This document shows, in pieces, positions 2,978 to 60,590 of a stretch of 64,000 nucleotides of DNA. Within the stretch, counting starts at the first letter, position 1, and the number at the start of each line of letters is the position of its first letter. The DNA lies in assembly GCA_031260805.1 (NCBI GenBank), contig JAISKV010000001.1:20978-84977 (forward strand), given 5' to 3'. Source of the DNA: Rickettsiales bacterium (GTDB lineage: Bacteria > Pseudomonadota > Alphaproteobacteria > Rs-D84). The translations under genes and the position numbers were made by a program. Below the pieces are notes generated by a model. The model ran no database searches. It was not told the DNA's origin and saw only the letters and a program-made list of their open reading frames with translations.

Positions 2978-3317
2978 AGAACAGAATCGCGATATTTCAT
3001 AATTATATTGCAAAGCGGCGCGCAAGCGCTGTTTTTTTATCGCGCAATACTGTGTGCTGACTGTGTAAATACATGGTATATACAATGTATTTACAAGGTG
3101 TTGGCGTGGTGTTGCAGGACGAATCGGGGTCAAAAAAAATATAAATAAAATGATTGTTAAAAAATTTGGCAAAGACTTTTTTTTATTTAATCTGACCAGC
3201 AGAGAACGGGAAGAAAAATTAAGAAATAAGAATTAAGAATTTGGCTATGGCGGACAAATTATGACCGGGATGAAAAATAATTCTTAATTCTTATTTCTTA
3301 ATTTTTAATTCAGCAAG

Positions 3318-4595
3318 ATGGGGGCGAATATGGCGGGAACAGCAGCGATTGCGCGGGGCACGGATAATATCATACTGGCTTTGCGCGAAAAATTGGGGGA
3401 CGCCACTTTTGATTCATGGCTCCAAACCGCCGCTATTGAAACCGCCGAAGATACGCTTGCCATAAATACCATATCCCGCTTTAACGCTGATTTTATATGC
3501 CGCAATTATTTGACGGCCATTGAATCGGTCGCCGGCGAATTCGGATATGGCGTGAAAATAATATGCGCGCCCACCGCCGCGCCGGTCAATGACAATGTGA
3601 TTCAGTCAAAAATCGCAATGCCGGCCGCGCGGGAAAATACCGGCGTCCGTTTCGGCGATTTCCTGTGCGCGCCGGAAAATCAGTTCGCGCTGTCGGCGGC
3701 GCAAAAGATAGCGTCCGGCGCCGCGTCATTTTCGCCTTTGTTTATCTATGGGCCGGCCGGTTGCGGAAAATCAATGATTGCGGCCGCGATTGAAAACGAA
3801 TTTGACGGCCGCGCGCTGCACATGACCGGCGCCCAGTTTGTTTCTGAATTCGTGCGCAGCATCGCGGCGCGGAATAATTTTGCATTCAAGGACTTTTGCC
3901 GCAATTGCGATTTATTCATTTTAGATGATATTTCCGCGCTGGTCGGCAAAAAGCAAACGATTGATGAATTCACAACTCTGCTGATGGACCTGGTCCGGGC
4001 CGGCAAGAATGTCGTCATAACCGCGGAAAATGCGCCGGGCCAGATCAGCGGATTTGACCGGCGGCTGCAATCATTGCTGGCATCGGGATTGGTTGCGGAC
4101 TTGACCGCGCCAACCGTGGACATCCGCCGCAGAATGCTGGTTGCCGGCAATGTTCCCGGTGAAATCGCGGCGCAAATTGCGGGCCGCATCGCGGCGAACG
4201 GGCATATTGTCGGCGGGATTGTGAAAAAGATAACGACTTGGCGCGATTTAATGGGAACGCCGATTACTGCGGCTGTCGCGGAATCATTAATCAGCGATTG
4301 CGCGCGGAAAAATCGCACGCCGCTGGCGATTGCGCGCGCGATGTCGGAAAAGACGGGAATTTCGTTTGATGACATATGCTCTGGCACGCGCGTGGCGTCG
4401 GTTGTGCGGGCGCGGGCGATGATGATGTTCGCATTAAAACAGACCGGGCGGCAAACGCTGTCTGAAATCGGCCGGATATTTGGGGACCGCACGCACGCGA
4501 CAGTGCTGCATGCGATCGCGATGGTGGAAAAAATGAAATCCGGGGATTTGATAATGTCTGCGGAATTGAACGAAATGTGCGAGATGTGCAGATAA
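3318..4595 (+). CDS. dnaA: chromosomal replication initiator DnaA
   Basis: AAA+ Walker A GPAGCGKS, Walker B LFILDD, and a C-terminal domain IV helix-turn-helix (IGRIFGDRTHATVLHA). Start uncertain: 3318 or the ATG at about 3330. Confidence 0.85.
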   Translation: MGANMAGTAAIARGTDNIILALREKLGDATFDSWLQTAAIETAEDTLAINTISRFNADFICRNYLTAIESVAGEFGYGVKIICAPTAAPVNDNVIQSKIAMPAARENTGVRFGDFLCAPENQFALSAAQKIASGAASFSPLFIYGPAGCGKSMIAAAIENEFDGRALHMTGAQFVSEFVRSIAARNNFAFKDFCRNCDLFILDDISALVGKKQTIDEFTTLLMDLVRAGKNVVITAENAPGQISGFDRRLQSLLASGLVADLTAPTVDIRRRMLVAGNVPGEIAAQIAGRIAANGHIVGGIVKKITTWRDLMGTPITAAVAESLISDCARKNRTPLAIARAMSEKTGISFDDICSGTRVASVVRARAMMMFALKQTGRQTLSEIGRIFGDRTHATVLHAIAMVEKMKSGDLIMSAELNEMCEMCR

Positions 4596-6717: not shown

Positions 6718-6778
6718 ACGGATTATGGTAATATAAAAAAGATAAAAATTAAAAGACAAAAGATAAAAAGGATTAAAA

Positions 6779-7288
6779 ATGAAGAAATCGTATTTCGTAT
6801 CTCGCATCACGGGCGCGACCGCTGAAAGCGGGCGGAGCATGATTGAAATGCTGGGCGTGCTGATGATCATGGGAATCATAACCGTCGGCGCGATAACAAT
6901 GATATCCGCCGCGATGCGCGGGCAAAAGCGATCCGGGGTTCAGGATGAAATCGCGCAGATTACAACCGGCGTGCGCCAATTGCTGGGCGAATACGACGAC
7001 TTTTCGCTGATTGACAACAATACTATATTCGGGGCGATCGGGGTGTCGAACAAGAACCCGTACGGCGGCCTGTACGAAGTATCCGTGGATTACAATAATC
7101 CCCAGCAGTTCATCGTTTCAATCCATGGCCTGAACAAATCGGATTGCGAGTTTTTCAAGACCAAGGCCTGGACGGATTCGGTCGGATATCAGTCGTCCGA
7201 CGGTAAATTCGGCGGAGCCGAGGCGGATCCCAGCGATTGCAACGCGTCAAGCGCGGGGAACACGGTGCACATAACTTTTGGAGAATAA
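6779..7288 (+). CDS. type IV pilin-like protein (prepilin-type N-terminal domain)
   Basis: Possible prepilin cleavage motif G|RSMIEML with Glu at +5. Hydrophobic N-terminal helix. Two C-terminal Cys (D-region-like disulfide). 19-aa leader. Confidence 0.6.
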   Translation: MKKSYFVSRITGATAESGRSMIEMLGVLMIMGIITVGAITMISAAMRGQKRSGVQDEIAQITTGVRQLLGEYDDFSLIDNNTIFGAIGVSNKNPYGGLYEVSVDYNNPQQFIVSIHGLNKSDCEFFKTKAWTDSVGYQSSDGKFGGAEADPSDCNASSAGNTVHITFGE

Positions 7289-10265: not shown

Positions 10266-11087
10266 GTGAAAGGTAATAACATGGAAAAAATTATGAATAT
10301 GGTTTCTCATCCTGGATTTTATGTCGCAGTTGCAGAATTTGCAATTATCGGGATTTGCTTGTGGCTGTTTTACAAGCGCTTTATTCGGCACACCGCTTCG
10401 GAAAAACTGGTGCGGGGATTGCTGGGGCTGGCGGTATTGTGGGTGGCTAGTTTCGCACTCATGTATGTGGGTCTGGGGATATTGGGGGTATTTGCCCAGT
10501 ATGTCGCGATATTCTTGTCGGTCGGACTGGTGGTTATATTCCAGCCTGAATTGCGCAAATTTTTGGGCATGATGGGCCAGGTGAAGTTCTTGGCCGGCTT
10601 GTTTTCCAAAAAAGTGCTGGACAGCGCGGATAAAAAATCAAAACTGGAATCGGCCGCCGCCGAGATAATCAAGGCCGCGGAATACATGTCGGCCAAGCAT
10701 ATTGGCGCGCTGATTGTGTTCCAAGACGGCATGGACGGCGGCGTTAAGAACTATGGCACGATTGTGAACGCGGATATAACCAGCGAATTGCTGCTGACTA
10801 TATTTTTTCCAAAAACATCGTTGCATGACGGTGCGGTCGTTATCAGCAATATGCGGATTTATTCGGCTGGCGCGATATTGCCGCTGACAGAAAACCGGGA
10901 TCTGCACTGGCAATACGGCACGCGGCACCGGGCGGCGATCGGGCTGAGCGAAGTGTCCGACGCGACGGTCCTGGCGGTGAGTGAAGAAACCGGAAATATC
11001 AGCATCTCGCGCGGGGGGAAAATTTCCCATATTGAATCGGCCGCCAAATTAAAATCCAAAATAATCGCGGCCATGTCTAAGGTTTAA
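10266..11087 (+). CDS. cdaA: diadenylate cyclase (c-di-AMP synthase), CdaA/DacA type
   Basis: Three N-terminal TM helices. DAC domain motifs HDGAVVI (DGA) and GTRHRAAIGLSE (RHR). Confidence 0.8.
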   Translation: MKGNNMEKIMNMVSHPGFYVAVAEFAIIGICLWLFYKRFIRHTASEKLVRGLLGLAVLWVASFALMYVGLGILGVFAQYVAIFLSVGLVVIFQPELRKFLGMMGQVKFLAGLFSKKVLDSADKKSKLESAAAEIIKAAEYMSAKHIGALIVFQDGMDGGVKNYGTIVNADITSELLLTIFFPKTSLHDGAVVISNMRIYSAGAILPLTENRDLHWQYGTRHRAAIGLSEVSDATVLAVSEETGNISISRGGKISHIESAAKLKSKIIAAMSKV

Positions 11088-11285
11088 GGTTTGAGGTTTA
11101 AGGTTTAAGGTTTAAGGTTTGAGATTAGATGTTAATGATACCAAATATGATGTTTTGCCCATAGTTCTGCATATTTTAATGTATAGCATACTAGTATGCT
11201 ATACATTAATTTGACAATAAATTACATTAGCCACATAGACCTCAAACCTCAAACCTCAAACCTTAAACCTTAAACCTTAAACCTT
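11088..11285. repeat. long imperfect palindrome built from tandem GGTTTAAGG/GGTTTGAGG words
   Basis: 5' arm (GGTTTAAGG)n and 3' arm (CCTTAAACC/CCTCAAACC)n flank an AT-rich loop of about 110 nt. The first word overlaps the last codons and stop of cdaA. Confidence 0.85.
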
Positions 11286-11409: not shown

Positions 11410-12531
11410 ATGGAATTTTCGGTATTTCGTCAGGTATTGATTCGCACATTGTCGCACATGCAGTCTATTGTAGAAAAGCGGGCAACCCTGCCGATTCTCA
11501 GCAATGTAAAGTTAGAGGTCAAGGATGATCTGGTTCTGTCCGCGACAAATGTGGATTTGGAACTGGTTGAGCGGGTCAAGGCCGATATCACGCTGGGCGG
11601 GAAAATCACGGTCCCGGTTCAGAACTTGTTTGACATCGTCCGCAAACTGCCGGATGACGCCGAAATTCGGTTCAAGCAGGTTGACGCCGGCCAGGTGGAA
11701 GTGCGCAGCGGCCGCAGCGTTTTCAAGTTGCCCGCACTGCCGGCGGAAAACTTTCCGATGATGGCGGCGACCAATCTGACGACCAAGTTCAAGATGACGA
11801 CCGACGATCTGGCGCATCTGCTGAATCAAACAAAATTTGCAATCCCCAGCGACGATGTCCGGTACAACCTGGGCGGAATTTACTTTCATCTGACCGAAGA
11901 AGGCAGCAAGAGCATGCTGACCGCGGTCGCCACGGACGGCCAGCGGATGGCGCTGTGCGCGATGCCGAATCCCGATGGCAGCACGGGCATGCCCGCCGTA
12001 ATTCTGCCGCGGCGCGTGATTGGCGAATTGTCAAAGTTGCTAGAAGACGCGACTGTGGACGATGTGCAGCTGGAACTGTCCGATTCCAAGGCGAAATTTA
12101 CGCTGGGCGGCGCGGTCTTGACATCAAAACTGGTTGACGCGCAGTATCCGAACTATCGCATAGTCATCCCGAAATCAAACGAGCGCATCGCCGAAATGGA
12201 TCGCAAATTCTTGTCCGGCGCGGTGGATCTGGTGTCTGTGGTCTGCACGGATAAAACCAAATCGGTAAACCTGCAATTCTCGCTGAACAAACTGGTTATC
12301 AGCGCCAGCAGCACCGAAGGCGGCAGCGCGGTCCAGGAAATGGATATTGAATATAACAGCGATGAAACATTCAATATCATATTCAATGTGAAATATCTGC
12401 TGGATATTGTCGGACAGACCCAAGGCGACAAAATCCGCTTTGCGATGCAGGATCCGTTGAGCCCGGTTTTAATAAAATCCACGGATAAGAAAACGGATAC
12501 AATGTTTATCCTTATCCCGATGCGCGGGTAA
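11410..12531 (+). CDS. dnaN: DNA polymerase III beta sliding clamp
   Basis: 373 aa, three-domain beta-clamp pattern, typical N-terminal region MEFSVFRQVLIRTLSHMQSIVEKRATLPILSNVKLE. Confidence 0.9.
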   Translation: MEFSVFRQVLIRTLSHMQSIVEKRATLPILSNVKLEVKDDLVLSATNVDLELVERVKADITLGGKITVPVQNLFDIVRKLPDDAEIRFKQVDAGQVEVRSGRSVFKLPALPAENFPMMAATNLTTKFKMTTDDLAHLLNQTKFAIPSDDVRYNLGGIYFHLTEEGSKSMLTAVATDGQRMALCAMPNPDGSTGMPAVILPRRVIGELSKLLEDATVDDVQLELSDSKAKFTLGGAVLTSKLVDAQYPNYRIVIPKSNERIAEMDRKFLSGAVDLVSVVCTDKTKSVNLQFSLNKLVISASSTEGGSAVQEMDIEYNSDETFNIIFNVKYLLDIVGQTQGDKIRFAMQDPLSPVLIKSTDKKTDTMFILIPMRG

Positions 12532-25417: not shown

Positions 25418-26410
25418 ATGAGTCATCAGTTCTTCTTTTCACCGTACATATTGGATAATCTGGTGGCGCCGGCGGCCGGATTCAGCGTGTTCCAGGATAT
25501 TGCCCAGCCGAAACTGAAAATTTACATAACCGCGCGCGGCGTGCGGACTTTCTTTACGCGCAAGCGCGTGCACGGCCGGGACCAGCGGATAATTCTGGGC
25601 AATTATCCGGAAACAGACATTGAAACGGCGCGGGGAATTCTGGGCGATGCGATTGCGGCGCGGTGCGCGCCGATTCAGAAGAAAAATGCCGCGATTAGTG
25701 TCGGCGCGCTGATTAAAATCTGGATTCGCGATAAAATTAAGTCCAAGTCCAAAACTCTGCGCGCGACAACACGGCACTTTGGCAAAATATGGACCAAGCG
25801 GCTGAGCGCAATAACCGCGGACGAACTGGGCGAGATTATCCGCAGCATCGCTGAATCCGCCGGGCCGGCAATCGCGTGCCGGATGCGCTGCGCCGCGGTC
25901 AGTTTTTTCAAGCATGCGGTGCAACTGGGATACCTGGAAAAAAATCCGGCCGCGGGGATTCCCAGGATTGCGGCCCAGCCGCGGCATAAAAACAGGCTCA
26001 GTTGGACGGCATTGTCAAAACTGGTCCGCGCGATACGGTCTGAACAGGACGAAAATACGCGGCGCGCGTTTTTAATGCTGGTTTACGGATTTGCAAATCG
26101 GTCGCGGATTTTTTCAATGCGTTGGTCGGACATAGATTTTAACCAGTACGCATGGCATGACGGGCTGCTGTCCGATCCGGCCATAGATTTAATCCAGGAA
26201 ATGTCCCAGGATTTCGTATGGCTGTTTCCGGGGCGCGGCCGCCGGCATCTGACGGATCCGCGCGGGGCGTGGCGGCGGATTGTGAAAAATGCGGGCTTGC
26301 GCGAAATCCAAATGAATGATGTTTACAAGTTTCTGAAATCAAAACTTCCGAAAACCGGCGATATTTATGAATTGCGCGCCGCGAAAAACGATATCTTGAC
26401 AAAAATTTGA
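25418..26410 (+). CDS. phage-type tyrosine integrase-like protein, probably truncated/degenerate
   Basis: N-terminal P4-type arm-binding domain (KLKIYITARGVRTFFTRKRV). SAM-like core-binding domain. Only the start of the catalytic domain (FLMLVYGFANRSRIFSMRWSDID). No clear HxxR...Y tail. 330 aa. Confidence 0.5.
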   Translation: MSHQFFFSPYILDNLVAPAAGFSVFQDIAQPKLKIYITARGVRTFFTRKRVHGRDQRIILGNYPETDIETARGILGDAIAARCAPIQKKNAAISVGALIKIWIRDKIKSKSKTLRATTRHFGKIWTKRLSAITADELGEIIRSIAESAGPAIACRMRCAAVSFFKHAVQLGYLEKNPAAGIPRIAAQPRHKNRLSWTALSKLVRAIRSEQDENTRRAFLMLVYGFANRSRIFSMRWSDIDFNQYAWHDGLLSDPAIDLIQEMSQDFVWLFPGRGRRHLTDPRGAWRRIVKNAGLREIQMNDVYKFLKSKLPKTGDIYELRAAKNDILTKI

Positions 26411-30108: not shown

Positions 30109-30138
30109 AAAAAAAACGGGCCCCGGCCCGTTTTTTTT
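30107..30138 (+). terminator. rho-independent terminator
   Basis: AAAAAAAAACGGGCCCCGGCCCGTTTTTTTT. Confidence 0.75.
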
Positions 30139-30216: not shown

Positions 30217-30246
30217 CAAAAAAATGCGGCTTTGCCGCATTTTTTC

Positions 30247-30275
30247 TTGACAGTTGCGCGCTGGACGGTTATACT
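30247..30275 (+). promoter_or_regulatory. near-consensus sigma70 promoter of the str (rpsL) operon
   Basis: TTGACA -35, 17-nt spacer, TATACT -10. About 150 nt upstream of rpsL. Follows two terminators. Confidence 0.6.
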
Positions 30276-30802: not shown

Positions 30803-30979
30803 ATGGCGTTTGATGTAGAAGCGGTATACAAGGAATATCAGGCGGCAGTTCGTTCAGGTAATGTTAACAAAATGAATGAAGTGCTGGAAAGTTTGAGCGA
30901 GGCTAAGTTCGGATTGTTAAGAAACTATATCAAGACAGTGAACGCAAAAGCCGCTATTGAGAATATTAAAAATAAATAA
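30803..30979 (+). CDS. small hypothetical protein (58 aa) inserted between rpsL and rpsG
   Basis: Begins 4 nt after rpsL stop. [61 protein letters not shown]. Not in ORF track (<60 aa). Confidence 0.4.
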
Positions 30980-31509: not shown

Positions 31510-31685
31510 TTTCCGCGCTGCGCGCGAAAATTAATGAATAATGAACAATGAATAGTTGTTCAGCAAGCAAAAGGTGAAGAAAGAATAAAAAATAATAAAT
31601 AATATTGCTGCGAGCAAAGCGAGCACAAACATTATTCATTATTCACTATTCATTATTCACTATTTGCGAACAAAGAGAGCAAATT
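31510..31685. repeat. ~175-nt intergenic repeat family B, copy 1 (rpsG-fusA spacer)
   Basis: Terminator-like GC hairpin, then arm AATGAATAATGAACAATGAATA. Then a core of about 75 nt, followed by arm CATTATTCATTATTCACTATTCATTATTCACTATTT. Near-identical copy at 42994-43177. Confidence 0.85.
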
Positions 31686-33767: not shown

Positions 33768-33852
33768 AACAATTAAAAATTAATAATTAAGAATTATAAA
33801 TTGGAACACAGTTATTAATTCTTAATTCATTTACTACGAAGGAGTAAATAAA

Positions 33853-35040: not shown

Positions 35041-35068
35041 TTTGGCGCAGCCAAATTATTTGATAGAT

Positions 35069-35130
35069 ATGAAACATGAGACACGAGACATGAATAATCA
35101 TGTTTCATATCTCATGTCTCGTATCTCAAA
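35069..35130. repeat. palindromic hairpin of ATGAAACATGAGACACGAGACATGA words
   Basis: Arm ATGAAACATGAGACACGAGACATGA / loop / TCATGTTTCATATCTCATGTCTCGTATCTCA. Preceded by a small terminator-like hairpin TTTGGCGCAGCCAAATT after tuf. Confidence 0.8.
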
Positions 35131-35160
35131 GAATTGAAAACTGGTCAAGGGAATTAAAAA

Positions 35161-35469: not shown

Positions 35470-35470
35470 A

Positions 35471-35551
35471 GGTGTAAGTGTATGTGCGGGTGTAAGTTGA
35501 TTTTGCTTACAATTTCACCTGCACATACACCTGCACCTGCACAAAAAGGTA
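35471..35551. repeat. palindromic hairpin of GGTGTAAGTGTATGTGCGGGTGTAAG words
   Basis: Arms GGTGTAAGTGTATGTGCGGGTGTAAGTTG and CAATTTCACCTGCACATACACCTGCACCTGCAC between rpsJ and rplC. Confidence 0.8.
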
Positions 35552-35558
35552 TCAGAAA

Positions 35559-37274: not shown

Positions 37275-37279
37275 TATAG

Positions 37280-37368
37280 ATAAAAGATAAAAATGAAAAG
37301 ATAAAAATTATTGCAGAAATTATTATCTTTTATCTTTTAATTTTTATCTTAAACGAACGAAGTGAGTT
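37280..37368. repeat. ~88-nt intergenic repeat family A, copy 1 (rplW-rplB spacer)
   Basis: GATAAAAGATAAAAATGAAAAGATAAAAATTATTGCAGAAATTATTATCTTTTATCTTTTAATTTTTATCTTAAACGAACGAAGTGAGTT. Palindromic AT-rich arms plus an AAACGAACGAAGTGAGT module ending 5-8 nt before the start codon. Confidence 0.9.
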
Positions 37369-37373
37369 AAATT

Positions 37374-38207
37374 ATGGCATTGAAACAGTACAAACCAAAT
37401 ACACCTGGAACGCGCGGATTAATCCTGGTTGATCACAGCGAACTGCATCGCGGCGCGCCTGAAAAATCTTTGACGCGCGGATTGAAATCCAACGGCGGCC
37501 GCAACAATTTCGGCCATATGGTTGTCCCGCATCAGGGCGGCGGCCACAAGCGGTCTTATCGTCTGATTGACTTCAAGCGGAAATTGCGCGATGTTGCAGG
37601 CACAGTGGTTCGTTTGGAATACGATCCGAACCGCACCGCGTTTATCGCGCTGATTGAATACGCCGGCGGCGCGAAGTCCTATATCATCGCGCCGAAAAAT
37701 CTGGCTGTTGGCGATTCAGTTATTGCGGCGGACCGCGCGGATATCAAGCCGGGCAACGCGATGCCGTTGAAAAACATGCCGATCGGAACAATCATTCACA
37801 ATGTTGAGATGAAGCCGGGGGCGGGCGGACAACTGGCGCGCAGCGCTGGCTGCTATGCCCAATTGATGGGCAAGGACGGCGTTTACGCGCAGATTAAAAT
37901 GAACAGCGGCGAACTGCGCAAGATTCATTCCGAATGCATGGCCACGGTCGGCAGCGTTTCCAATCCTGACCAGCGCAATGTGAATCTGGGCAAGGCAGGG
38001 CGCGCGCGCTGGCTGGGTATCCGCCCGTCAACACGCGGTATGGCGATGAATCCGGTTGATCACCCGAACGGCGGCGGAAACGGCCGGTCCAAGGGACATT
38101 CGCCTGTGTCGCGCACCGGCATCCCGGCCAAGGGATTCCGCACGCGGAAAAATAAACAGACTGCGAAAATGATAATTCGTTCGCGTCATTTGAACAAGAA
38201 GAAATAA
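37374..38207 (+). CDS. rplB: 50S ribosomal protein L2
   Basis: L2 conserved blocks ([21 protein letters not shown]). Confidence 0.97.
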
Positions 38208-38217
38208 AGGTAAAAAT

Positions 38218-38511
38218 ATGTCTCGCAGTGTTTGGAAAGGACCATTCGTTCATCCTTCGGTGTTAAAAAAGACCGCCAAGGCGAACGAAATCAACGATCG
38301 CAAGCCGATCAAGACTTGGGCGCGCGGTTCAACAATTGTTCCGCCGATGGTCGGATTGACTTTTGATGTCCACAACGGGCACAAATTTATCCCTGTCCTG
38401 GTTTCCGAAGATATGATCGGACACAAGTTGGGCGAATTCTCGCCGACGCGGACCTTTAAGGGCCATGCTGCGAACAAGAAAGCGGCGGCCGCGACCAAGG
38501 GAAAGAAATAA
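38218..38511 (+). CDS. rpsS: 30S ribosomal protein S19
   Basis: [12 protein letters not shown]-terminus, S19 core. Confidence 0.97.
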
Positions 38512-38535
38512 AATTTGCGCCGCAAATTTTATCAA

Positions 38536-38624
38536 GATAAAAGATAAAAATGAAAAGATAAAAATTATTGCAGAAATTATTATCTTTTATCTTTTAATTT
38601 TTATATTAAACGAACGAAGTGAGT
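38536..38624. repeat. intergenic repeat family A, copy 2 (rpsS-rplV spacer)
   Basis: Near-identical to copy 1; preceded by terminator-like hairpin AAATTTGCGCCGCAAATTTT (38511-38530). Confidence 0.9.
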
Positions 38625-38630
38625 TTAGTT

Positions 38631-39068
38631 ATGGCAGAAAAATATAATATTAAAGAAAATCAGGCGCGCGCATTTGACAAAATGATTCGTGTTTCGCACC
38701 AGAAATTGGGCCTGGTCATTGACACAATCCGCGGATTGCCGGTGGCCAAGGCGGTTGATGTGCTGAAATTTTCCAAAAAGCGCGTTGCCGGTCATGTTCT
38801 GAAAGTTCTGATGTCGGCGATCGCCAATGCGGAACACAATAAAAAACTGCCAGCGGATTCTTTGTTCGTGCGCGAAATCTGGTGCGGCAAGTCAATAACG
38901 ATGAAACGAGTGTATTTTGGCGGAATGACCCAGAACGGGGCGGGCGGCGTTCGTCATATCTTGAAGCCTTTTTCCAATCTGACGATTATCGTGGAAAGCG
39001 GCGCGGCACCGGAAAAAAAGAAAGAAGTTAAAAAAACGGAAGTTAAAAAAGAGACAAAGAAAAAATAA
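38631..39068 (+). CDS. rplV: 50S ribosomal protein L22
   Basis: L22 core (ARAFDKMIRVSHQKL...) plus Lys-rich C-terminal tail; start trimmed to MAEKYN. Confidence 0.9.
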   Translation: MAEKYNIKENQARAFDKMIRVSHQKLGLVIDTIRGLPVAKAVDVLKFSKKRVAGHVLKVLMSAIANAEHNKKLPADSLFVREIWCGKSITMKRVYFGGMTQNGAGGVRHILKPFSNLTIIVESGAAPEKKKEVKKTEVKKETKKK

Positions 39069-39069
39069 T

Positions 39070-39120
39070 TTTCAGAGTTCAGAATTCAGTATTTTGACTG
39101 AACTCTGAAAACTGAAAACT
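39070..39120. repeat. palindromic hairpin of CAGAGTTCAGAATTCAG words
   Basis: TTTTCAGAGTTCAGAATTCAGTATTTTGACTGAACTCTGAAAACTGAAAAC. Same word family at about 20228-20252, 52795-52820 and 60482-60522. Confidence 0.8.
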
Positions 39121-39146
39121 ATTTGCGACGATAGGAGCAAACAAGT

Positions 39147-39848
39147 ATGGGACAGAAAGTATCACCAATATCGCTGCGGGTTGGAATCAATAAAACACCT
39201 GATTCCCGCTGGATTGCGACCAAGCGCGATTATGCGGCAAACTTGGCCGAAGATGTCAAGATTCGCAATTTCATTGAAAAGAAATTGGAAAAAGCGGGCT
39301 TGGCCAAAGTTGTTATTGAACGGTTCGGCAAGAAAGTCGTCGTGACAGTCCATACTTCGCGCCCCGGTATGATTATCGGCAAAAACGGCGGAGATATAGA
39401 GGCTTTGCGCGCAGCGATTAAAAAGTTGAGCAAGAATGACCAGGTTGTCGTGAATATTTTCGAGGTTCGCCGTCCTGATCTGAACGCCAAACTGGTTGCG
39501 AAAAATATCGCAACGCAGATAGAAGGCCGCATTGCGTTCAAGCGCGCGATGAAGAAGGCAATCCAAGGCTCGGTCAAGGCGGGCGCGCAGGGAATCAAGG
39601 TCATGTGCGCGGGCCGTCTGAACGGCGCGGAAATCGCCCGTACCGAACACATGCGCGAAGGTCAGATTCCATTGCACACATTGCGCGCGGATATTGATTA
39701 TGCTTCGTTGCAGGCAAAAACGACCTATGGGGTTATCGGGGTCAAGGTCTGGATTTACAACGGCGATGTCGTAAATCGTGAAAAATTGGCCGCTGAAATG
39801 GCGCGCCCGACGGAATACGCCGCATCAAGCGAAAAAGATAAAAGATAA
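39147..39848 (+). CDS. rpsC: 30S ribosomal protein S3
   Basis: KH domain and S3 C-terminal domain; last codons (EKDKR-stop) fall inside repeat A copy 3. Confidence 0.95.
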
Positions 39849-39935
39849 AAATGAAAAGATAAAAATTTCTGCTGGTAAAGGAAAATAATTATTATCTTTT
39901 ATCTTTTAATTTTTATCTGAAATTAGCGAAGAGAG
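39833..39935. repeat. intergenic repeat family A, copy 3 (variant; rpsC-rplP spacer)
   Basis: GATAAAAGATAAAAATGAAAAGATAAAAAT...ATTATTATCTTTTATCTTTTAATTTTTATCT. Diverged centre and 3' module. The 5' arm overlaps the rpsC stop. Confidence 0.85.
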
Positions 39936-39943
39936 CAAATATT

Positions 39944-40357
39944 ATGTTAATGCCGACGAAAACAAAGTTTAAGAAACAGCACAAAGGCCGCATTCATGGC
40001 GATGCCAAGGGCGGATTTGAATTGGCGTTCGGATCTTTTGGGCTGAAAGCGATGTCTCCGGAACGGGTTACGGCGCGTCAGATTGAATCCGCGCGCCGCG
40101 CAATAACCCGCCACATGAAGCGGTTGGGCAAATTGTGGATACGCGTGTTCCCGGATGTGCCCGTCACGAAAAAGCCTGAACAGGTCCGCATGGGCAAGGG
40201 CAAGGGTGCGGTTGAATACTGGGTATGCCGTGTGAAACCGGGCCGCATTATGTTCGAGTTGGATGGCGTGAAACCGGAAATCGCGACCGAGGCATTGACG
40301 CTGGCCGCGGCGAAATTGCCGCTGCGCACAAAGATTGTTGAAAGAAAGGCGAATTAA
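39944..40357 (+). CDS. rplP: 50S ribosomal protein L16
   Basis: [17 protein letters not shown]-terminus; L16 core. Confidence 0.97.
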
Positions 40358-40358
40358 A

Positions 40359-40577
40359 ATGGCAGCGAAAAAAGAAATAAAAAAAGCGGTGAAAGCCGAT
40401 AAAGAAGTTTTAAGCAGCGAAGCGTTGAAAAGCCGCTTGGTGGACTTGAAAAAAGAAGCGATGGAAAATCGGTTCAAGTTGGCGGCCGGACAATTGCCGA
40501 AAACTCATGTGGTGCGCAAAAATCGCCGTGAGATTGCCAGGGTTCTGACCGCATTGAATAATAAAAAGGACGCATAA
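40359..40577 (+). CDS. rpmC: 50S ribosomal protein L29
   Basis: Small helical protein after rplP, 72 aa; start trimmed to MAAKKEIKK. Confidence 0.85.
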
Positions 40578-40578
40578 C

Positions 40579-40845
40579 ATGCCAAGACGAGTATTACAAG
40601 GAACAGTGGTCAGCGATGCCAACGACAAAACAGTTGTCGTCAATGTTGAACGCCGGTTCCGTCATCCCTTGTACGGGAAATTTGTAAAACAGAACAAAAA
40701 GTACAAGGTGCACGACGAAAACAACGAATATAAAAAAGGCCAGGTGGTTGCCATTGAAGAGCACCGTCCGATTTCCAAAACGAAAAAGTGGATGGTTCGC
40801 GGACTGGTCGGCGTCGCCAAAGACGCAAGCGTGGATGTGGAATAA
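40579..40845 (+). CDS. rpsQ: 30S ribosomal protein S17
   Basis: [29 protein letters not shown]-fold S17 sequence. Confidence 0.95.
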
Positions 40846-40975
40846 AAATTAAGAATTAATAATCAAGAATTAAGAATTCTTGAAGATTGATTCTGATTAT
40901 ATAGATAAACGGGGAAAGAGTTCAGGTTTTGATAGAGAATATAATTCTTGATTCTTAATTCTTAATTCTTAATTA
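40846..40975. repeat. long palindrome of AATTAAGAATTAATAATCAAGAATTAAGAATT words
   Basis: Arms AAATTAAGAATTAATAATCAAGAATTAAGAATTCTTG and AATTCTTGATTCTTAATTCTTAATTCTTAATT with about 60-nt loop. Same word family at 3217-3311, 33790-33835, 43580-43615 and 60310-60420. Confidence 0.8.
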
Positions 40976-40979
40976 TGAA

Positions 40980-41354
40980 ATGATACAGAATGAAACAATT
41001 ATGAAAGTGGCGGACAACAGCGGGGCCAAGCGCGCGCAGTGCATCAAGGTGCTGGGCGGGTCTCATCGCCGCTATGCTACGCTGGGCGACAAGATTGTCG
41101 TCGCGATAAAAGACGCTATTCCCAATGGCAAGGTTCAGAAGGGAACCGTTCAGCGCGCGATTATCGTTCGCACAAAGTTCGCGACGAAACGCAGCGACGG
41201 CAGCGTGATCCGCTTTGACGACAACGCGGTCGTGCTGATTAACAAGAATAATTTTGAACCGATCGGGACCCGCATTTTCGGACCTGTCGCGCGCGAAGTT
41301 CGCCGCAAGTACGATGTTCAGAAAATTGTGTCCCTGGCACCGGAAGTTATATAA
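40980..41354 (+). CDS. rplN: 50S ribosomal protein L14
   Basis: [17 protein letters not shown]...[11 protein letters not shown] conserved L14. Confidence 0.97.
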
Positions 41355-41391
41355 AAGTGAAAAGTAAAAAGTGAAATTAAGGCGGGTTGAT

Positions 41392-41697
41392 ATGAAGATA
41401 AAGAAAAATGATGAAGTCGTTGTGATTTCGGGAAAATACAAAGGGGCCAAGGGCAAAGTTCTGGAAGCGCGCCCGACGGAATCCCGCGTGGTTGTCGCCG
41501 GCGTGAATCCGCGCAAGTTTCATATCAAGCCGACCCAGGACAAGCCGGGCAGCATTGAAACGCGCGAAACGCCGATACATGTGTCAAATGTCGCGCTGAT
41601 TGATCCAAAGTCAAAAAAAGCGACCAAGGTCGGATATAAAATTGCAGACGGAAAGAAAGTCCGCGTCGCAAAGAAATCCGGCACGGAAATGAATTAA
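41392..41697 (+). CDS. rplX: 50S ribosomal protein L24
   Basis: KOW motif [22 protein letters not shown]; start trimmed. Confidence 0.95.
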
Positions 41698-41711
41698 TAA
41701 AAGCAAGAGGC

Positions 41712-41987
41712 GTGGCGTCTGATTTTTCGGCGGGCAACGCCGGGGGTCAGAAAGTGGTTAAGAAAATTACAGTTCCTGCGATGATATATTATCTGGTTGT
41801 GCAGGGCGAATATATTGTCGGTCAAGAAGATTCGTATCAGATATCTGGACATGACATAGTGGCGAACGGAAAATATGTTATATACAATTCCGAAACAAGG
41901 AAAGTCAGGGTCAGGGCGGTAAAAGAAAAAGATTTATTGCAGAAAACGGTTTTAAGACTGGTTTTGGAAAACGAAAAGAAAAAATAA
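41712..41987 (+). CDS. hypothetical protein (91 aa) inserted between rplX and rplE
   Basis: GTG start 15 nt after rplX stop with AGCAAGAGG upstream. Beta-rich sequence VPAMIYYLVVQGEYIVGQ...GKYVIYNSETRKVRVRAV with Lys-rich tail. Not a known ribosomal protein. Confidence 0.4.
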   Translation: MASDFSAGNAGGQKVVKKITVPAMIYYLVVQGEYIVGQEDSYQISGHDIVANGKYVIYNSETRKVRVRAVKEKDLLQKTVLRLVLENEKKK

Positions 41988-42026
41988 ACCTTGCCTGCTG
42001 ATACAGGCGAAATAAAGGAAAACAAA

Positions 42027-42572
42027 ATGCAGAGCAGATTGCGAGATTTTTACGAAAAGACCATAGTTCCCGAATTAAAAAAGGAATTCAGTCTGACAAA
42101 CAGCCTGGCGGTTCCGCGCATTACGAAAATCGTGCTGAACATGGGCGTGGGTGAAGCGGCGGCGGACAAAAAGAAACTGGACAACGCGGCGGCGGATCTG
42201 ACACTGATTGCGGCGCAGAAGCCTGTTATCACCAAGGCGAAAAAGTCAATCGCGACATACCGCCTGCGCGAAGGCCAGGCCATCGGGACCAAGGTCACCC
42301 TGCGCGGAAAGCGCATGTATGATTTCTTGGACAAACTGATTACAATCGCATTGCCGCGGATAAAAGACTTTCAGGGATTGTCCAAGTCCAAATTTGACGG
42401 GCGCGGAAACTATGCCTTTGGAATCAAGGAACATTTGATATTCCCGGAAATTTCCGTTGAAAAAATAGAATCTATCCGCGGAATGGATATCGTTATCGCG
42501 ACCACCGCCGAAACAGATGACCAAGGGCGCGCATTGCTGACCAGAATCGGCCTGCCGCTGGTGTTGAAATAA
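42027..42572 (+). CDS. rplE: 50S ribosomal protein L5
   Basis: L5 conserved core ([13 protein letters not shown]...); start trimmed to [10 protein letters not shown]. Confidence 0.95.
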
Positions 42573-42596
42573 AATTTGCGGCGCAAATTTTATCAA

Positions 42597-42686
42597 GATA
42601 AAAGATAAAAATGAAAAGATAAAAATTATTGCAGAAATTATTATCTTTTATCTCTTAATTTTTATCTTAAACGAACGAAGTGAGTG
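42597..42686. repeat. intergenic repeat family A, copy 4 (rplE-rpsN spacer)
   Basis: Near-identical to copies 1-2; preceded by terminator-like AAAATTTGCGGCGCAAATTTT; 3' module ends 4 nt before rpsN ATG. Confidence 0.9.
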
Positions 42687-43579: not shown

Positions 43580-43640
43580 TAAAATTAAGAATTAAGAAAT
43601 AAGAATTAATAATTCTTTTACGAACGAAGTGAGTGAAATT

Positions 43641-44201
43641 ATGAGCAGAGCGGGAAAATATCCAGTAGAAATCAAAAACGGCGTCAATGTCGCCATTGTC
43701 GGGTCCGACATTGTTGTCCGGGGGCCGCGCGGCGAATTGAAACTGCGCAATGACACGAAAAATGCCGGCTTGGTTGATGTCAAGATTGAAGGCGCGGCGG
43801 TTGTCGTCATTCCGAAAGACGCGGAAGACAAAGCATCGCGCGCGATGTGGGGAACAATGGCTCGCAACATCAAACAGATGGTTGTCGGCGTCACAGACGG
43901 CTGGTCCAAAGATATTTGCATGAAGGGCGTCGGGTACAAGGCGAATGTGCGCGGTTCCGACCTGGTGCTGACAGCAGGATACTCGCATGATGTCGTCATG
44001 CCGATTCCGGCCGGATTGTCTGTTGAAATCGGCGCGACTGAAAACGGCATTGTGAACTTTGCAGTTCGTGGGACTGACAAAAACGCGGTCGGACAGTTCA
44101 GCGACAAAATCTGCAAGGTGCGTCCGGTTGAACCTTACAAGGCCAAGGGCATTTATTACAAGGGTCAAAAGATTATCCGCAAAGAAGGAAAAAAGAAATA
44201 A
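43641..44201 (+). CDS. rplF: 50S ribosomal protein L6
   Basis: MSRAGKYPVEI...two-domain L6; start trimmed. Confidence 0.95.
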   Translation: MSRAGKYPVEIKNGVNVAIVGSDIVVRGPRGELKLRNDTKNAGLVDVKIEGAAVVVIPKDAEDKASRAMWGTMARNIKQMVVGVTDGWSKDICMKGVGYKANVRGSDLVLTAGYSHDVVMPIPAGLSVEIGATENGIVNFAVRGTDKNAVGQFSDKICKVRPVEPYKAKGIYYKGQKIIRKEGKKK

Positions 44202-44398
44202 TGTTTGATGTTCGGACTTTATGCATGGCATTGGGTTATGGAACCGGTATTGCGGGCGCGGCTGTCATATTTGTGTCGGCTTTTGCATCCAAGGCAAAAA
44301 GCGATGCCATGAACGCGGAACAGTTTAACGAATTGATGGAAATAAACAAGCGGGCGTTGGAATGTTTTGACAATGCCAAGAGAATAGAAGTAAAATAA
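44201..44398 (+). CDS. small hypothetical membrane-associated protein (65 aa) inserted between rplF and rplR
   Basis: ATG overlaps rplF stop (TAATG coupling arrangement); one hydrophobic helix then charged helical tail. Confidence 0.4.
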   Translation: MFDVRTLCMALGYGTGIAGAAVIFVSAFASKAKSDAMNAEQFNELMEINKRALECFDNAKRIEVK

Positions 44399-44812: not shown

Positions 44813-44835
44813 TTTCCGCGCCGCGGAAATTAAAT

Positions 44836-44908
44836 CAGTTATTAGTTATTAATTATTATACTTTTGCGCGCAATGATGTAATAATTAATAACTGATAATT
44901 TATAACTA
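44836..44908. repeat. palindromic hairpin of CAGTTATTAGTTATTAATTATTA words
   Basis: Arms CAGTTATTAGTTATTAATTATTATAC and GTAATAATTAATAACTGATAATTTATAACTA. Preceded by small hairpin AATTTCCGCGCCGCGGAAATT after rplR. Confidence 0.8.
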
Positions 44909-44930
44909 AAAAATACGGAGTATTTTTATA

Positions 44931-46161: not shown

Positions 46162-46380
46162 ATGACAAAGCAACAAAACAACTTGTTGATAAAAATTCTG
46201 GTGTCGCTGGCGATATTTCTGATTTGCTTTTTCAGCATTGATGTTATCGTTCGTCTGTTCAGTTATTTCTTGGTCAAGGTATTGTTTGCCGCATTGATAA
46301 CTTACGCGATTGTGCAGATTGCGGACAAATTGGGACTGCCGGGATTTGCCGCGGCGCCGAAAACAGGAAAAAAGAAGTGA
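46162..46380 (+). CDS. small hypothetical membrane protein (72 aa) inserted between rplO and secY
   Basis: Two predicted TM helices, Lys-rich C-terminus; occupies a position that is normally empty. Confidence 0.4.
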   Translation: MTKQQNNLLIKILVSLAIFLICFFSIDVIVRLFSYFLVKVLFAALITYAIVQIADKLGLPGFAAAPKTGKKK

Positions 46381-50471: not shown

Positions 50472-51113
50472 ATGAAGCAAACACCAGCAAACTATAAAAA
50501 AATTGGAATCATCGCGGCGGCCGTCGTCGTCGTGGCGGGATTGGGTGCATGGGGCATTTCCGCGCTGCGCGGACCCGCGTCAGTGGATCGCGCGATTTCG
50601 GATGTGTCTTCCGACGCTGTTACCGGCGCGGATCTGCGCATCGCGGTTGTCCGCATGGATATGATTCAGACAGATGCCAAGGTTCTGAAATCGCTGGCCG
50701 CGCAGAAAGAATCCATGGAAAAGAAATTGAAATCCGAATTGGAAGCCGAACAGAAAGCACTGGAAAAAGAAAAGAAAGAAATTGAAAAATCCCAAGATGT
50801 GTTGAGCCAGGAAGCCCTGCAACGGCGCGTGGTTGATTTCCAAAACCGTGTTGCGAAATTGCAGCGTGATGTGACGACCAAGGCCCAGGCCGCGGATGCC
50901 GCGTACCAGGCTGCTTTGGCGAAAATCCAAAAAGATGATCTGGATCCTATTATCGCGGGCATCATCGCGAAAAAGAATTTGTCAGTGGTCTTGGACGGCC
51001 GCATGGCGCGCGTGAATGAAAATATCGCGAACTTTGACATTACCAAGGATGTTATTCGCGCACTGGATATCCGGCGCAGCGATGCAAAGTTGGAAAAACC
51101 CAAAGGGTTCTAA
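50472..51113 (+). CDS. skp: periplasmic chaperone Skp (OmpH family)
   Basis: Signal anchor then long coiled-coil OmpH-like region (KEKKEIEKSQDVLSQEALQRR...). Confidence 0.7.
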   Translation: MKQTPANYKKIGIIAAAVVVVAGLGAWGISALRGPASVDRAISDVSSDAVTGADLRIAVVRMDMIQTDAKVLKSLAAQKESMEKKLKSELEAEQKALEKEKKEIEKSQDVLSQEALQRRVVDFQNRVAKLQRDVTTKAQAADAAYQAALAKIQKDDLDPIIAGIIAKKNLSVVLDGRMARVNENIANFDITKDVIRALDIRRSDAKLEKPKGF

Positions 51114-51143
51114 AAAAAATGCGCCGTAGGCGCATTTTTTTTA
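51113..51143 (+). terminator. rho-independent terminator after skp
   Basis: AAAAAAAATGCGCCGTAGGCGCATTTTTTTT. Confidence 0.75.
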
Positions 51144-51171
51144 GGTTTTAGGTTTAAGGTGAGAAGTATAA

Positions 51172-60081: not shown

Positions 60082-60116
60082 ATAGTAGTTAGTTGGAATT
60101 CAGGGTGCAGTTTATT

Positions 60117-60313
60117 ACCACTACCCCGTCGCGCTGCGCGCGCCACCCCTTCCCGGGCCCCGCGAAAAACAAAGTTTTTCGTGGGTGGATCCCAGCGAAG
60201 GGGATTTTGATGGCCTGCATCACATAATAAAATGATATTTATTGAAACGAAGTCGGGATAATCCCCTTCGCTGGCGAAGGGGTGGCGCGCGCAGCGCGAC
60301 GGGGTAGTGGTAG
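60117..60313. repeat. long palindromic element with CCACTACCCCGTCGCGCTGCGCGCGCCACCCCTTC arms (same family as 20257-20322)
   Basis: Left arm 60117-60165, right arm about 60262-60313, about 100-nt loop. Followed by an AATTAAGAA-word palindrome (about 60310-60420). Confidence 0.75.
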
Positions 60314-60425
60314 AATTATGAATTAAGAAAGAAGAATTAAGAATTATAAAATTATGTCTGACACTCTGTTTATTATAGCAGACAACGATAATTCTTATTT
60401 CTTAATTGTTAATTCTTAATTAAAT

Positions 60426-60487
60426 CCTGTAAACCACCCCGGCCTGCGGCCACCCCTCCAAAGGAGGGGAACTGGCCCCGCAACTAA
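60426..60487. repeat. copy of CCTGTAAACCACCCC...GGGGAACTGGCC arm (family of 51172-51497)
   Basis: CCTGTAAACCACCCCGGCCTGCGGCCACCCCTCCAAAGGAGGGGAACTGGCC, followed by CAGAGTTCAG-type words. Confidence 0.7.
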
Positions 60488-60590
60488 ACTCTGAACTCTG
60501 AACCCCGAACTCTGAAAACTAGTAATTTTTCCCTTTTATTAAATTGCCAAAGTATGTTAAAATGCAAGAGATTAATTCAAGAGAGAATCT

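Follow-up and report, generated by a model that had tools for sequence, protein, structure and literature searches.

Heptamer-armed, self-folding spacers between the ribosomal protein genes of an Rs-D84 alphaproteobacterium

Described hairpin and heptamer repeats and the Rs-D84 locus

Few gene arrays of bacteria are as compact and as conserved as the S10 and spc operons, whose tight spacing is thought to serve translational coupling and an equal output of the subunits. We describe here a class of self-folding spacers, built around hairpins whose two arms are tandem 7-nt repeats, which lie between the genes of these operons in a 64-kb stretch of a metagenome-assembled genome (MAG) of an uncultured member of the order Rs-D84 (contig JAISKV010000001.1; hereafter "the window", meaning the whole stretch). 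The spacers were seen in the window and, in a form of its own, in one sister genome (L082); 88 loci fetched from other genomes were compared.

Several described systems resemble these spacers in part. In the hmw1A gene of Haemophilus influenzae, the repeat (ATCTTTC)n forms a long hairpin in the 5' untranslated region (5'-UTR), which is processed by RNase III with a rise in expression (PMC12721329). A tandem heptamer, transcribed there and probably here, stands upstream of a gene as a hairpin arm in both cases, and ATCTTTC is close to the ATCTTTT of the 3' arm in the window. However, the hmw1A repeat provides one arm only, its partner being a G-rich tract; the hairpin belongs to the 5'-UTR of a gene for a phase-variable adhesin, and the number of repeats is variable. 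In the window both arms are repeats, located between cistrons of essential operons, belonging to several families and known from their sequence. The marine Beggiatoaceae exhibit one fixed heptamer, TAACTGA, in direct repeats (with one inverted case in 170 sets) that adjoin start codons, also inside ribosomal protein operons (fusA, L3, S4), and for which a post-transcriptional function has been put forward (PMC4679880). Both systems place head-to-tail heptamers in intergenic DNA close upstream of start codons within ribosomal protein operons, but the window uses many heptamers (TAACTGA itself not among them), always with an inverted copy and with a separate leader after it. Repetitive extragenic palindromic (REP) elements are GC-rich imperfect palindromes of 20-40 nt with a GTAG-type head; they number in the hundreds, are associated with RAYT transposases and influence mRNA turnover (PMC3479197, PMC12306157). 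Like REPs and the bacterial interspersed mosaic elements (BIMEs), the spacers are extragenic multi-copy hairpin repeats between co-transcribed genes, of families that differ between lineages. In contrast to them, the hairpins here are AT-rich and about 70 nt long, have heptamer-periodic arms and no GTAG head, and are copied as whole spacers including the ribosome-binding site (RBS). Pfam scans of 50 open reading frames (ORFs) of the window found no RAYT (Y1_Tnp) or other transposase domain.

Intercistronic stem-loops with a processing or stabilising function are exemplified by the RNase III sites of phage T7 and the hairpins of the Rhodobacter puf operon. The plastid intercistronic expression element is a further intercistronic stem-loop system (PMC2230500). 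In all of these, as in the window, a hairpin lies between cistrons of a polycistronic RNA, and in the described systems it sets off segments that are stable and translated on their own. Each of those systems has one specific element whose position was mapped by experiment, whereas the present ones are repeated, fast-evolving DNA known by its anatomy. Miniature inverted-repeat transposable elements (MITEs) exhibit terminal inverted repeats and target-site duplications, and Rickettsia palindromic elements insert in frame into genes. The spacers share with both the spread of short palindromic repeats in reduced alphaproteobacterial genomes and their tolerance at unusual sites, but show no target-site duplication, occupy exact stop-to-start intervals and form local clusters. 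Integron attC sites were considered and rejected: the gene order is universal and, of the cores (RYYYAAC/GTTRRRY), the copies as read from their sequence do not contain the inverse one. The window yielded no integrase of the IntI type, but one weak phage-integrase central-domain match (25418-26410) that falls just below the Pfam cut-off.

No Rfam family covers the spacers. In the window, searched at gathering score and at E<=1, only a tRNA reaches gathering score, and at E<=1 the hits, all sub-threshold, are to miRNA hairpins of eukaryotes and to two families of sRNA and lie outside the four repeat copies described below; four related loci were also searched at gathering score. By their sequence features, the elements are thus neither REPs, MITEs, intrinsic terminators or attC sites nor members of any Rfam family. 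Their novelty lies in a combination of traits: both arms are tandem heptamers, many unrelated families coexist, most S10/spc junctions are occupied, and complete stop-to-start cassettes are copied together with their RBS. The elements are real and unusual for S10/spc operons, and represent a variant of known intergenic palindromic repeats.

The GATAAAA family and its leader module

The uL2 protein places the window among gut Alphaproteobacteria, in the Candidatus Enterousia group of Rs-D84, with a best match of 86% identity in genome_contigs and 84% in the protein collection. The gene order is the universal str-S10-spc-alpha, and the cluster spans 30.4-51.1 kb (about 21 kb). A sequence-only reading of this DNA had reported four copies of an element of about 88 nt within the S10/spc operons. 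When the window was searched with a profile of the copies, four matches and no more were obtained (E-values 1e-19 to 1e-23), all inside 5.4 kb, so that their number stands; the element is, however, 89 nt long and its first copy starts one nucleotide earlier than reported, at 37279. Three copies match the consensus with zero (37279-37367), one (38536-38624) and one mismatch (42597-42685), and the fourth, recovered at 39835-39935, is the diverged copy that had been proposed before rplP. Pfam identifies the flanking genes as uL23/uL2, uS19/uL22, uS3/uL16 and uL5/uS14, which agrees with the earlier placement of the copies before rplB, rplV, rplP and rpsN, and also identifies uL6, confirming the placement of a partial copy before rplF. 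The features of this family are as follows.

37279-37367, + strand: copy A, between rplW and rplB; 89-nt element, ATG at 37374
~37284-37350, + strand: long AU-rich hairpin of copy A; arms of GATAAAA / TTTTATC heptamers
37351-37367, + strand: leader module of copy A
38511-38624, + strand: copy B, between rpsS and rplV; small GC hairpin 38511-38530, element 38536-38624, ATG 38631
39834-39935, + strand: copy C (diverged), between rpsC and rplP; arms alike, loop different and longer, leader GCGAAGAGAGC
42572-42685, + strand: copy D, between rplE and rpsN; small GC hairpin 42572-42591, element 42597-42685, ATG 42691
43581-43634, + strand: spacer between rpsH and rplF; AAGAATT-family heptamer tract 43581-43614, then module; ATG 43641
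43620-43634, + strand: rplF leader module ACGAACGAAGTGAGT, upstream of the uL6 gene (uS8/uL6 flanks by Pfam)

Each GATAAAA arm is about 30 nt long and consists of 3-4 imperfect heptamer units, the whole hairpin measuring about 70 nt with 8-13% G+C. A full cassette fills the interval between stop codon and start codon and is made up of a small GC hairpin at the TAA (copies B and D), the long heptamer-armed hairpin and a leader; the latter is 15-20 nt long and purine-rich, with a weak Shine-Dalgarno (SD) sequence, GAAGUGAG. Identity between copies B and D extends from the last codon and the TAA (GAAATAA) to GAGT, 5-6 nt before the ATG. The small GC hairpin of copy B overlaps the final base of the stop codon (38509-38511). 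Copy C reaches into rpsC, its 5' arm covering the final four codons and the stop codon (39846-39848) of that gene, despite which the uS3 C-terminus keeps the length and character seen in relatives. In a test for MITE-like insertion, no direct repeat or target-site duplication was found flanking copies A-D, and B and D share only GAAATAA upstream.

The element sequence is restricted to this genome among those compared. The profile has zero matches in the 88 loci from other genomes, so that relatives do not carry it; the 3' arm pattern likewise has none in these loci, and the exact 5' arm pattern has none in metagenome_contigs and viral_contigs. The sequence comes from a MAG, and assemblers of short reads can be led astray by repeats of about 90-120 nt, so that collapsed or chimeric repeats have to be considered. 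An independent Logan contig (run SRR14710919), however, carries rplB-rpsS and ends within the repeat on both sides, as a true multi-copy sequence would. Because this assembly reproduces both gene-repeat junctions identically, the repeats are not an assembly artefact. The alignment of the copies shows differences at single positions and in the flanks, the gene order and the protein C-termini are intact, and the sister MAG, from another sample, exhibits the same architecture. Mis-assembly thus retains next to no probability, and the sequence-only reading's concern on this point is answered. Exact look-ups of uS3 and uS14 for further independent contigs returned no record.

The 3' module is 17 nt long, AAACGAACGAAGTGAGT, and occurs three times exactly and once, alone before rplF as had been noticed, with 2 mismatches (43618-43634). 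At up to 3 mismatches there are 4 matches in the window against 0.17 expected by chance. The module had been located 4-8 nt before the ATG; it does end near the start codon, but the gap is 5-6 nt. The suggestion that it replaces the SD context was not upheld. Its duplex with the anti-SD sequence GAUCACCUCCUUUCU, computed against a canonical 16S 3' end that had to be assumed (the 16S 3' end lies outside the window), has a predicted energy of -5.8 to -7.7 kcal/mol and lies 7-10 nt upstream of the ATG. These values are within the range of the neighbouring ribosomal protein genes (about -4 to -9; background -4.6 +/- 2.5), and equal in strength the weak AAGGA-type sites of those genes. The module is thus a weak SD ribosome-binding leader, not an SD replacement. 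Related leaders precede rplB in L088 (CGAAGGAAGCGAGT), rplW in L082 (GCGAAGTGAGT) and rplF in Enterousia (AAGTGAGGA), the first two with the module-like pattern CGAAG..G[CT]GAGT. A second leader type, TTTGCGAC..GGAGCAAA, is found upstream of rpsC and rpsH in the window and in L082 alike.

The sequence-only reading had suggested that the element may control processing, attenuation or ribosomal protein stoichiometry; in silico, the hairpin leaves the accessibility of the RBS as it is. For copies A, B and D, the predicted SD accessibility is the same whether or not the 16 nt under a terminating ribosome are kept unpaired. Since the predicted accessibility is unaltered by this ribosome footprint, the long hairpin behaves as an insulated insert. 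A translation-coupled switch was rejected on the same prediction for A, B and D. Programmed -1 frameshifting, which an A-rich gene end followed by a hairpin could suggest, was also rejected: the C-termini match those of relatives, and in copy A a TAG closes the frame that stays open through the element.

At 6739-6808, ahead of a prepilin-like ORF (6779-7288), a purine-rich GATAAAA-like tract stands alone, lacking an inverted partner; the ORF itself contains, in its first codons, the period-7 tract TCGTATT TCGTATC TCGCATC.

Heptamer-armed hairpins across the ribosomal protein cluster

The four copies had been presented as a special element. They are instead one family among many heptamer hairpins, and a second duplication of a whole spacer exists. 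Nearly every long spacer of the str-S10-spc-alpha cluster exhibits a long AT-rich hairpin, with a different sequence each time. The arm heptamers include GATAAAA, AAGAATT, CAGAGTT, AAGGTTT, GTGAAAA, AATGAAT, CATGAGA and GTGTAAG, each with an inverted partner, and families other than GATAAAA are dispersed over the window. The window contains 39 tracts of period 7 (1163 nt), against 6 of period 6, one of period 9 and none of periods 4, 5, 8 or 10-12. Among the 41 spacers of at least 40 nt, 20 contain an inverted repeat with an ungapped score of at least 14, whereas shuffled spacers, used as control, never scored above 12. Copies A-D are paralogues of one family, and this family belongs to a lineage-specific class of self-folding intercistronic spacer cassettes. 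Other spacers with this anatomy are listed here.

31510-31685, + strand: whole-spacer cassette between rpsG and fusA; small GC hairpin, AATGAAT-family hairpin, leader TTTGCGA..GAGCAAA
42994-43177, + strand: whole-spacer cassette between rpsN and rpsH; paralogue of 31510-31685
33768-33852, + strand: spacer between fusA and tuf; AATTAAG-type hairpin, then small stem-loop presenting GAAGGAG
35041-35160, + strand: spacer between tuf and rpsJ; GC mini hairpin, then CATGAGA-type heptamer hairpin (-41 kcal/mol, z -7.4)
35470-35558, + strand: spacer between rpsJ and rplC; GTGTAAG-type hairpin directly 3' of the stop codon (-41 kcal/mol, z -7.1)
39069-39146, + strand: spacer between rplV and rpsC; CAGAGTT-type hairpin (z -5.4), leader TTTGCGACGATAGGAGCAAA
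40846-40979, + strand: spacer between rpsQ and rplN; AAGAATT-family hairpin with 32-nt arms, the 3' arm ending 5 nt before the rplN ATG
44813-44930, + strand: spacer between rplR and rpsE; GC mini hairpin, then GTTATTA-type hairpin (z -5.5)

The rpsG-fusA and rpsN-rpsH spacers both extend from stop to start and lie 11.5 kb from each other; their alignment covers 176 nt with 96% identity. It takes in the small GC hairpin, the AATGAAT hairpin including the loop, and the SD-bearing leader. Where the AAGAATT hairpin ahead of rplN ends, a two-codon mini-ORF (ATG AAA TGA, 40974-40982) overlaps the rplN start codon; rplN itself has no recognisable SD (-0.8 kcal/mol).

A class of tandem heptamers shared by several genes could represent binding-site arrays for a trans-acting protein (S1-, Csp- or CsrA-like) that co-regulates translation, a role that has also been proposed for the TAACTGA repeats of the Beggiatoaceae. 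Such a role would fit the position of the heptamers just upstream of start codons, including those of ribosomal protein operons, as for TAACTGA (PMC4679880), and the occurrence of one family before several genes. However, the window contains at least 10 unrelated heptamers and the sister genome another set, which leaves no single recognition sequence; moreover, the repeats are sequestered in a duplex with their own complement, and a leader of 22-25 nt separates the tracts from the start codon. We consider binding-site arrays improbable.

Another possibility is that the spacers split S10/spc into units, the small GC hairpin terminating transcription, the AT-rich hairpin acting as a promoter and the module forming a new 5'-UTR. 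It is suggested by copies B and D, which start with a hairpin followed by UUUU, and by the AT-richness of the spacers. The small GC hairpin, AAATTTGCG(C/G)CGCAAATTTT, which had been called terminator-like, is indeed present before these two copies (38511-38530 and 42572-42591). However, its stem of 7-10 bp contains about 2-3 G-C pairs and the UUUU run is itself paired within the stem, whereas the real terminators of this genome, with an A-tract, an 11-16-bp stem and 6-8 T, stand at unit ends. Around the ribosomal protein cluster such terminators occur only at 30109, 30219 and 51110, and no canonical terminator-type hairpin is found between 30245 and 51110. Most hairpins within the cluster have no U-tract 3' of the stem, and most have either a T-tract 5' of it or a U-run that is paired; the long hairpin, AU-rich and with no U-tail, does not qualify as an intrinsic terminator. 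The small GC hairpin is therefore an unconvincing terminator. The features at the cluster borders are given below.

30219-30245, + strand: terminator at the upstream cluster border; A-tract, stem, T-tract
30247-30275, + strand: promoter-like site ahead of rpsL; TTGACA, 17 nt, TATACT
51110-51144, + strand: terminator at the downstream cluster border; 16-bp stem, 8 T

A scan of the 30-50 kb region yielded 27 promoter-like and 34 terminator-like matches, close to the 23.3 and 30.9 expected from shuffling, and none of either kind, hence no sigma-70-like promoter, in copies A, B or D. Two weak promoter-like matches would fit such units, one of 9/12 across the ATG of copy C (39917-39945) and one in the rplF spacer (43585-43613). 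Clear TTGACA/TATAAT-like sites are present at 30247, 44367 and 47776, upstream of rpsL, rplR and rpsM, so that the standard consensus is apparently used elsewhere while the element is devoid of it. A division of S10/spc into terminator-promoter units is thus very unlikely, slightly more so than the binding-site arrays. Because canonical terminators are found only at the cluster borders and copies A, B and D have no promoter, transcription probably runs through the whole cluster.

Four small ORFs with no Pfam match lie inside the str/spc operons at 30803-30979, 41712-41987, 44201-44398 and 46162-46380 (58, 91, 65 and 72 aa). Only the 72-aa ORF, membrane-like and located before secY, has a homologue (in L013), and L082 has different orphan ORFs at similar junctions. 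They were rejected as a part of the element, given the lack of a Pfam match and the single homologue.

Comparison with relatives and the proposed origin and role of the spacers

The span from rpsJ to rpsE contains 1733 non-coding nt in the window, against a median of 1001 in 19 Rs-D84 relatives and of 268 in 38 other Alphaproteobacteria. Junctions of at least 50 nt number 12 of 18 in the window, and have a median of 8 in the Rs-D84 relatives and of 1 in the other Alphaproteobacteria. In 22 Enterousia-like relatives the rplE-rpsN junction measures 11-22 nt and the rpsS-rplV junction 11-46 nt, and in outgroup Alphaproteobacteria these distances are about 2-20 nt. Copies B and D therefore occupy ancestrally short junctions, in line with the sequence-only reading, which had a hairpin-plus-leader cassette occupying normally short gaps.

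The sister MAG L082, of 84% uL2 identity and from another sample, exhibits heptamer hairpins at the same junctions, all four copy sites included. Its heptamers (GTGATTT, GCTAAGG, GTGCAAG, GTATCAC) differ from those of the window, and it has its own whole-spacer paralogues, with 80% identity. Elsewhere period-7 tracts are rare, fewer than 3 being found in 82 of the 84 loci surveyed. Occasional heptamer-armed hairpins (GAAGTTT and TGATTTT types) do occur in Enterousia-like genomes (L003:1288-1348; fusA-tuf junctions of L017 and L014), so that the heptamer process operates at a low level across the order and is amplified in the lineage of the window.

At many of these junctions the Enterousia relatives instead possess small GC-containing hairpins, which different species share and in which compensatory changes occur. 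The hairpin between rplW and rplB (alignment A2, L002-L024, e.g. L002:9925-10003) shows compensatory changes in 7 of 11 pairs, has the invariant motifs CAGA(G/T)AA and GTTA(G/T)TG, and does not match Rfam; it may be an undescribed uL2-linked leader. A diverged form of it persists inside the enlarged spacers of L082 and L088 and is absent from the window. The hairpin between tuf and rpsJ, 3' of tuf (alignment A3, L002-L024), exhibits double changes in 9 of 10 pairs, and the rpsN-rpsH spacer (alignment A4, L002-L024) an invariant TGTGGACAATGCA hairpin upstream of rpsH, which may be a uS8 autoregulatory site; neither is in Rfam. Hairpins thus covary across the order, and structure at the junctions is therefore retained while sequence turns over. 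As possible relics of ancestral leaders, GCAGAAA, the loop of copies A, B and D, was set beside the conserved GCAGAGAA of the relatives, and the AATGAAC heptamer beside their GGACAATGCA; both pairs look alike, over too short a length to serve as evidence.

The long hairpin of the GATAAAA copies has a predicted energy of -17 to -22 kcal/mol, with z -1.5 to -3.4 against shuffles, and several neighbouring hairpins are far stronger (z -5 to -7). The predicted stems of 22-29 bp, with 1-3 single mismatches, exceed the length needed by RNase III (about two turns, at least 20 bp, of mostly uninterrupted duplex). The gene for this enzyme, rnc, does not lie within the 64-kb window.

From these observations we infer, with middling confidence, that the spacers are cassettes copied between junctions, transcribed within the operon as insulated stem-loops that provide their own translation initiation, and possibly serving as RNase III or stability sites. 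Copying between junctions is favoured because whole-spacer paralogues exist, the copies are bounded by stop codons and RBSs, the GATAAAA family is locally clustered, and neither target-site duplication nor transposase was found in the window. Replication slippage would give rise to the heptamer tracts, and an inverted copy of a tract would form the second arm; whole spacers would then be copied between nearby junctions through template switching or gene conversion, and only those copies bounded by a stop codon and an RBS would survive. Transcribed within the long ribosomal protein mRNA, with no termination, the cassette would fold on itself and leave the downstream RBS exposed, each downstream gene being translated from its own weak SD instead of by tight coupling. 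The 22-29-bp stem may serve as an RNase III substrate, for which the heptamer hairpin of the hmw1A 5'-UTR is an experimental precedent, and the small GC hairpin may cap the upstream fragment against 3' exonucleases. What the sequence shows is the anatomy, the kinship of the copies, their distribution over lineages and the SD-like pairing, whereas transcription through the cassette, its cleavage, an effect on stability and the way of copying are inferred.

Several observations weigh against this copied-cassette explanation. The GATAAAA hairpin is only modestly stable and can slip between registers, the minimum free energy structure having an ensemble frequency of 0.01-0.13. The element folds equally well on the antisense strand, and the mismatches of 31 hairpins exhibit no excess of sense-strand wobble pairs (17 G:U against 22 A:C). 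Because there is no wobble excess and both strands fold equally well, mismatches and folding give no sign of selection on the RNA rather than on a DNA palindrome. The heptamer families are wholly different between the window and L082, and palindromes of the same kind occur outside operons and inside a coding region, as would fit neutral or selfish DNA. Finally, no relative closer than 86% uL2 identity is present in the databases searched, so that the copies are not datable.

The palindromes could accordingly be a DNA-level by-product or selfish DNA with no role as RNA, produced and homogenised by a lineage-specific process of heptamer slippage and quasi-palindrome template switching, perhaps after a reduced genome had lost a repair function, with the leader an ordinary RBS carried along and the repeats persisting where they are harmless. 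The equal folding of the two strands and the lack of G:U bias speak for such an origin, as do the complete turnover of sequence between sister genomes, and the nested palindromes found in every intergenic context with one inverted heptamer pair inside a dacC-like gene. On the account of Mrazek 2007 relayed in PMC4679880, no long simple-sequence repeats are commoner in prokaryotes than those with a heptanucleotide unit, and slippage of the polymerase is given as their cause. The genomes of Rs-D84 are moreover reduced, to about 0.7-1 Mb (PMC12306168). On the other hand, the hairpins conserved at the same junctions with compensatory changes in Enterousia relatives indicate that structure is under selection in the order, the hairpins within the operon systematically avoid a terminator configuration, and among 15 independent loci there are 11 in which the purine-rich arm is the 5' one, a weak bias (p ~0.06). 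We judge a purely neutral or selfish origin somewhat unlikely, and it stays a strong rival of the copied-cassette explanation.

More speculatively, the ribosomal protein super-operon of Rs-D84 could be punctuated, with selected hairpins at nearly every junction directing cleavage into separately stabilised and translated units. In the lineage of the window these marks would be regenerated by heptamer slippage and palindrome copying, coupled to the transcription of the marks themselves and to their cleavage by RNase III, as has been shown for the hmw repeat. We regard this extension as rather doubtful; if true, such an operon would be a bacterial counterpart of plastid intercistronic processing.

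With 12 of 18 junctions long, and with cassettes copied together with their RBS, the locus shows that the constraint of compactness on these operons can be relaxed. It offers a natural system for studying how palindromic repeats arise from heptamer slippage, how an essential operon tolerates them, and whether such hairpins serve as signals for the processing or the stability of RNA. In the relatives, the hairpins that are conserved and covary may in turn be undescribed ribosomal protein leaders.

Heptamer hairpins are also found ahead of replication genes. dnaA (3318-4595) is preceded by a long one with 28-nt arms at 3214-3306, and dnaN (11410-12531) by one with 45-nt arms at 11079-11285. Cumulative GC skew climbs over the whole window, which therefore lies on one replichore and, because dnaA and dnaN are present, possibly near the origin. 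Very large nested palindromes (-220 to -245 kcal/mol) are located at 51105-51520, 52425-53010 and 60085-60520, with GC-rich cores, e.g. TACCACTACCCCGTCGCGCTGCGCGCGCCACCCCTTC, flanked by heptamer arms and canonical terminators; the arms of one GC-rich palindrome are found again 40 kb away (20252 and 60263). The D-Ala-D-Ala carboxypeptidase (dacC-like) gene contains TTTTCAC four times (54932-54968) and GTGAAAA four times (55726-55755), two tracts that are 95% complementary and 757 nt apart, one in the signal-peptide region and the other near the 3' end of the gene.

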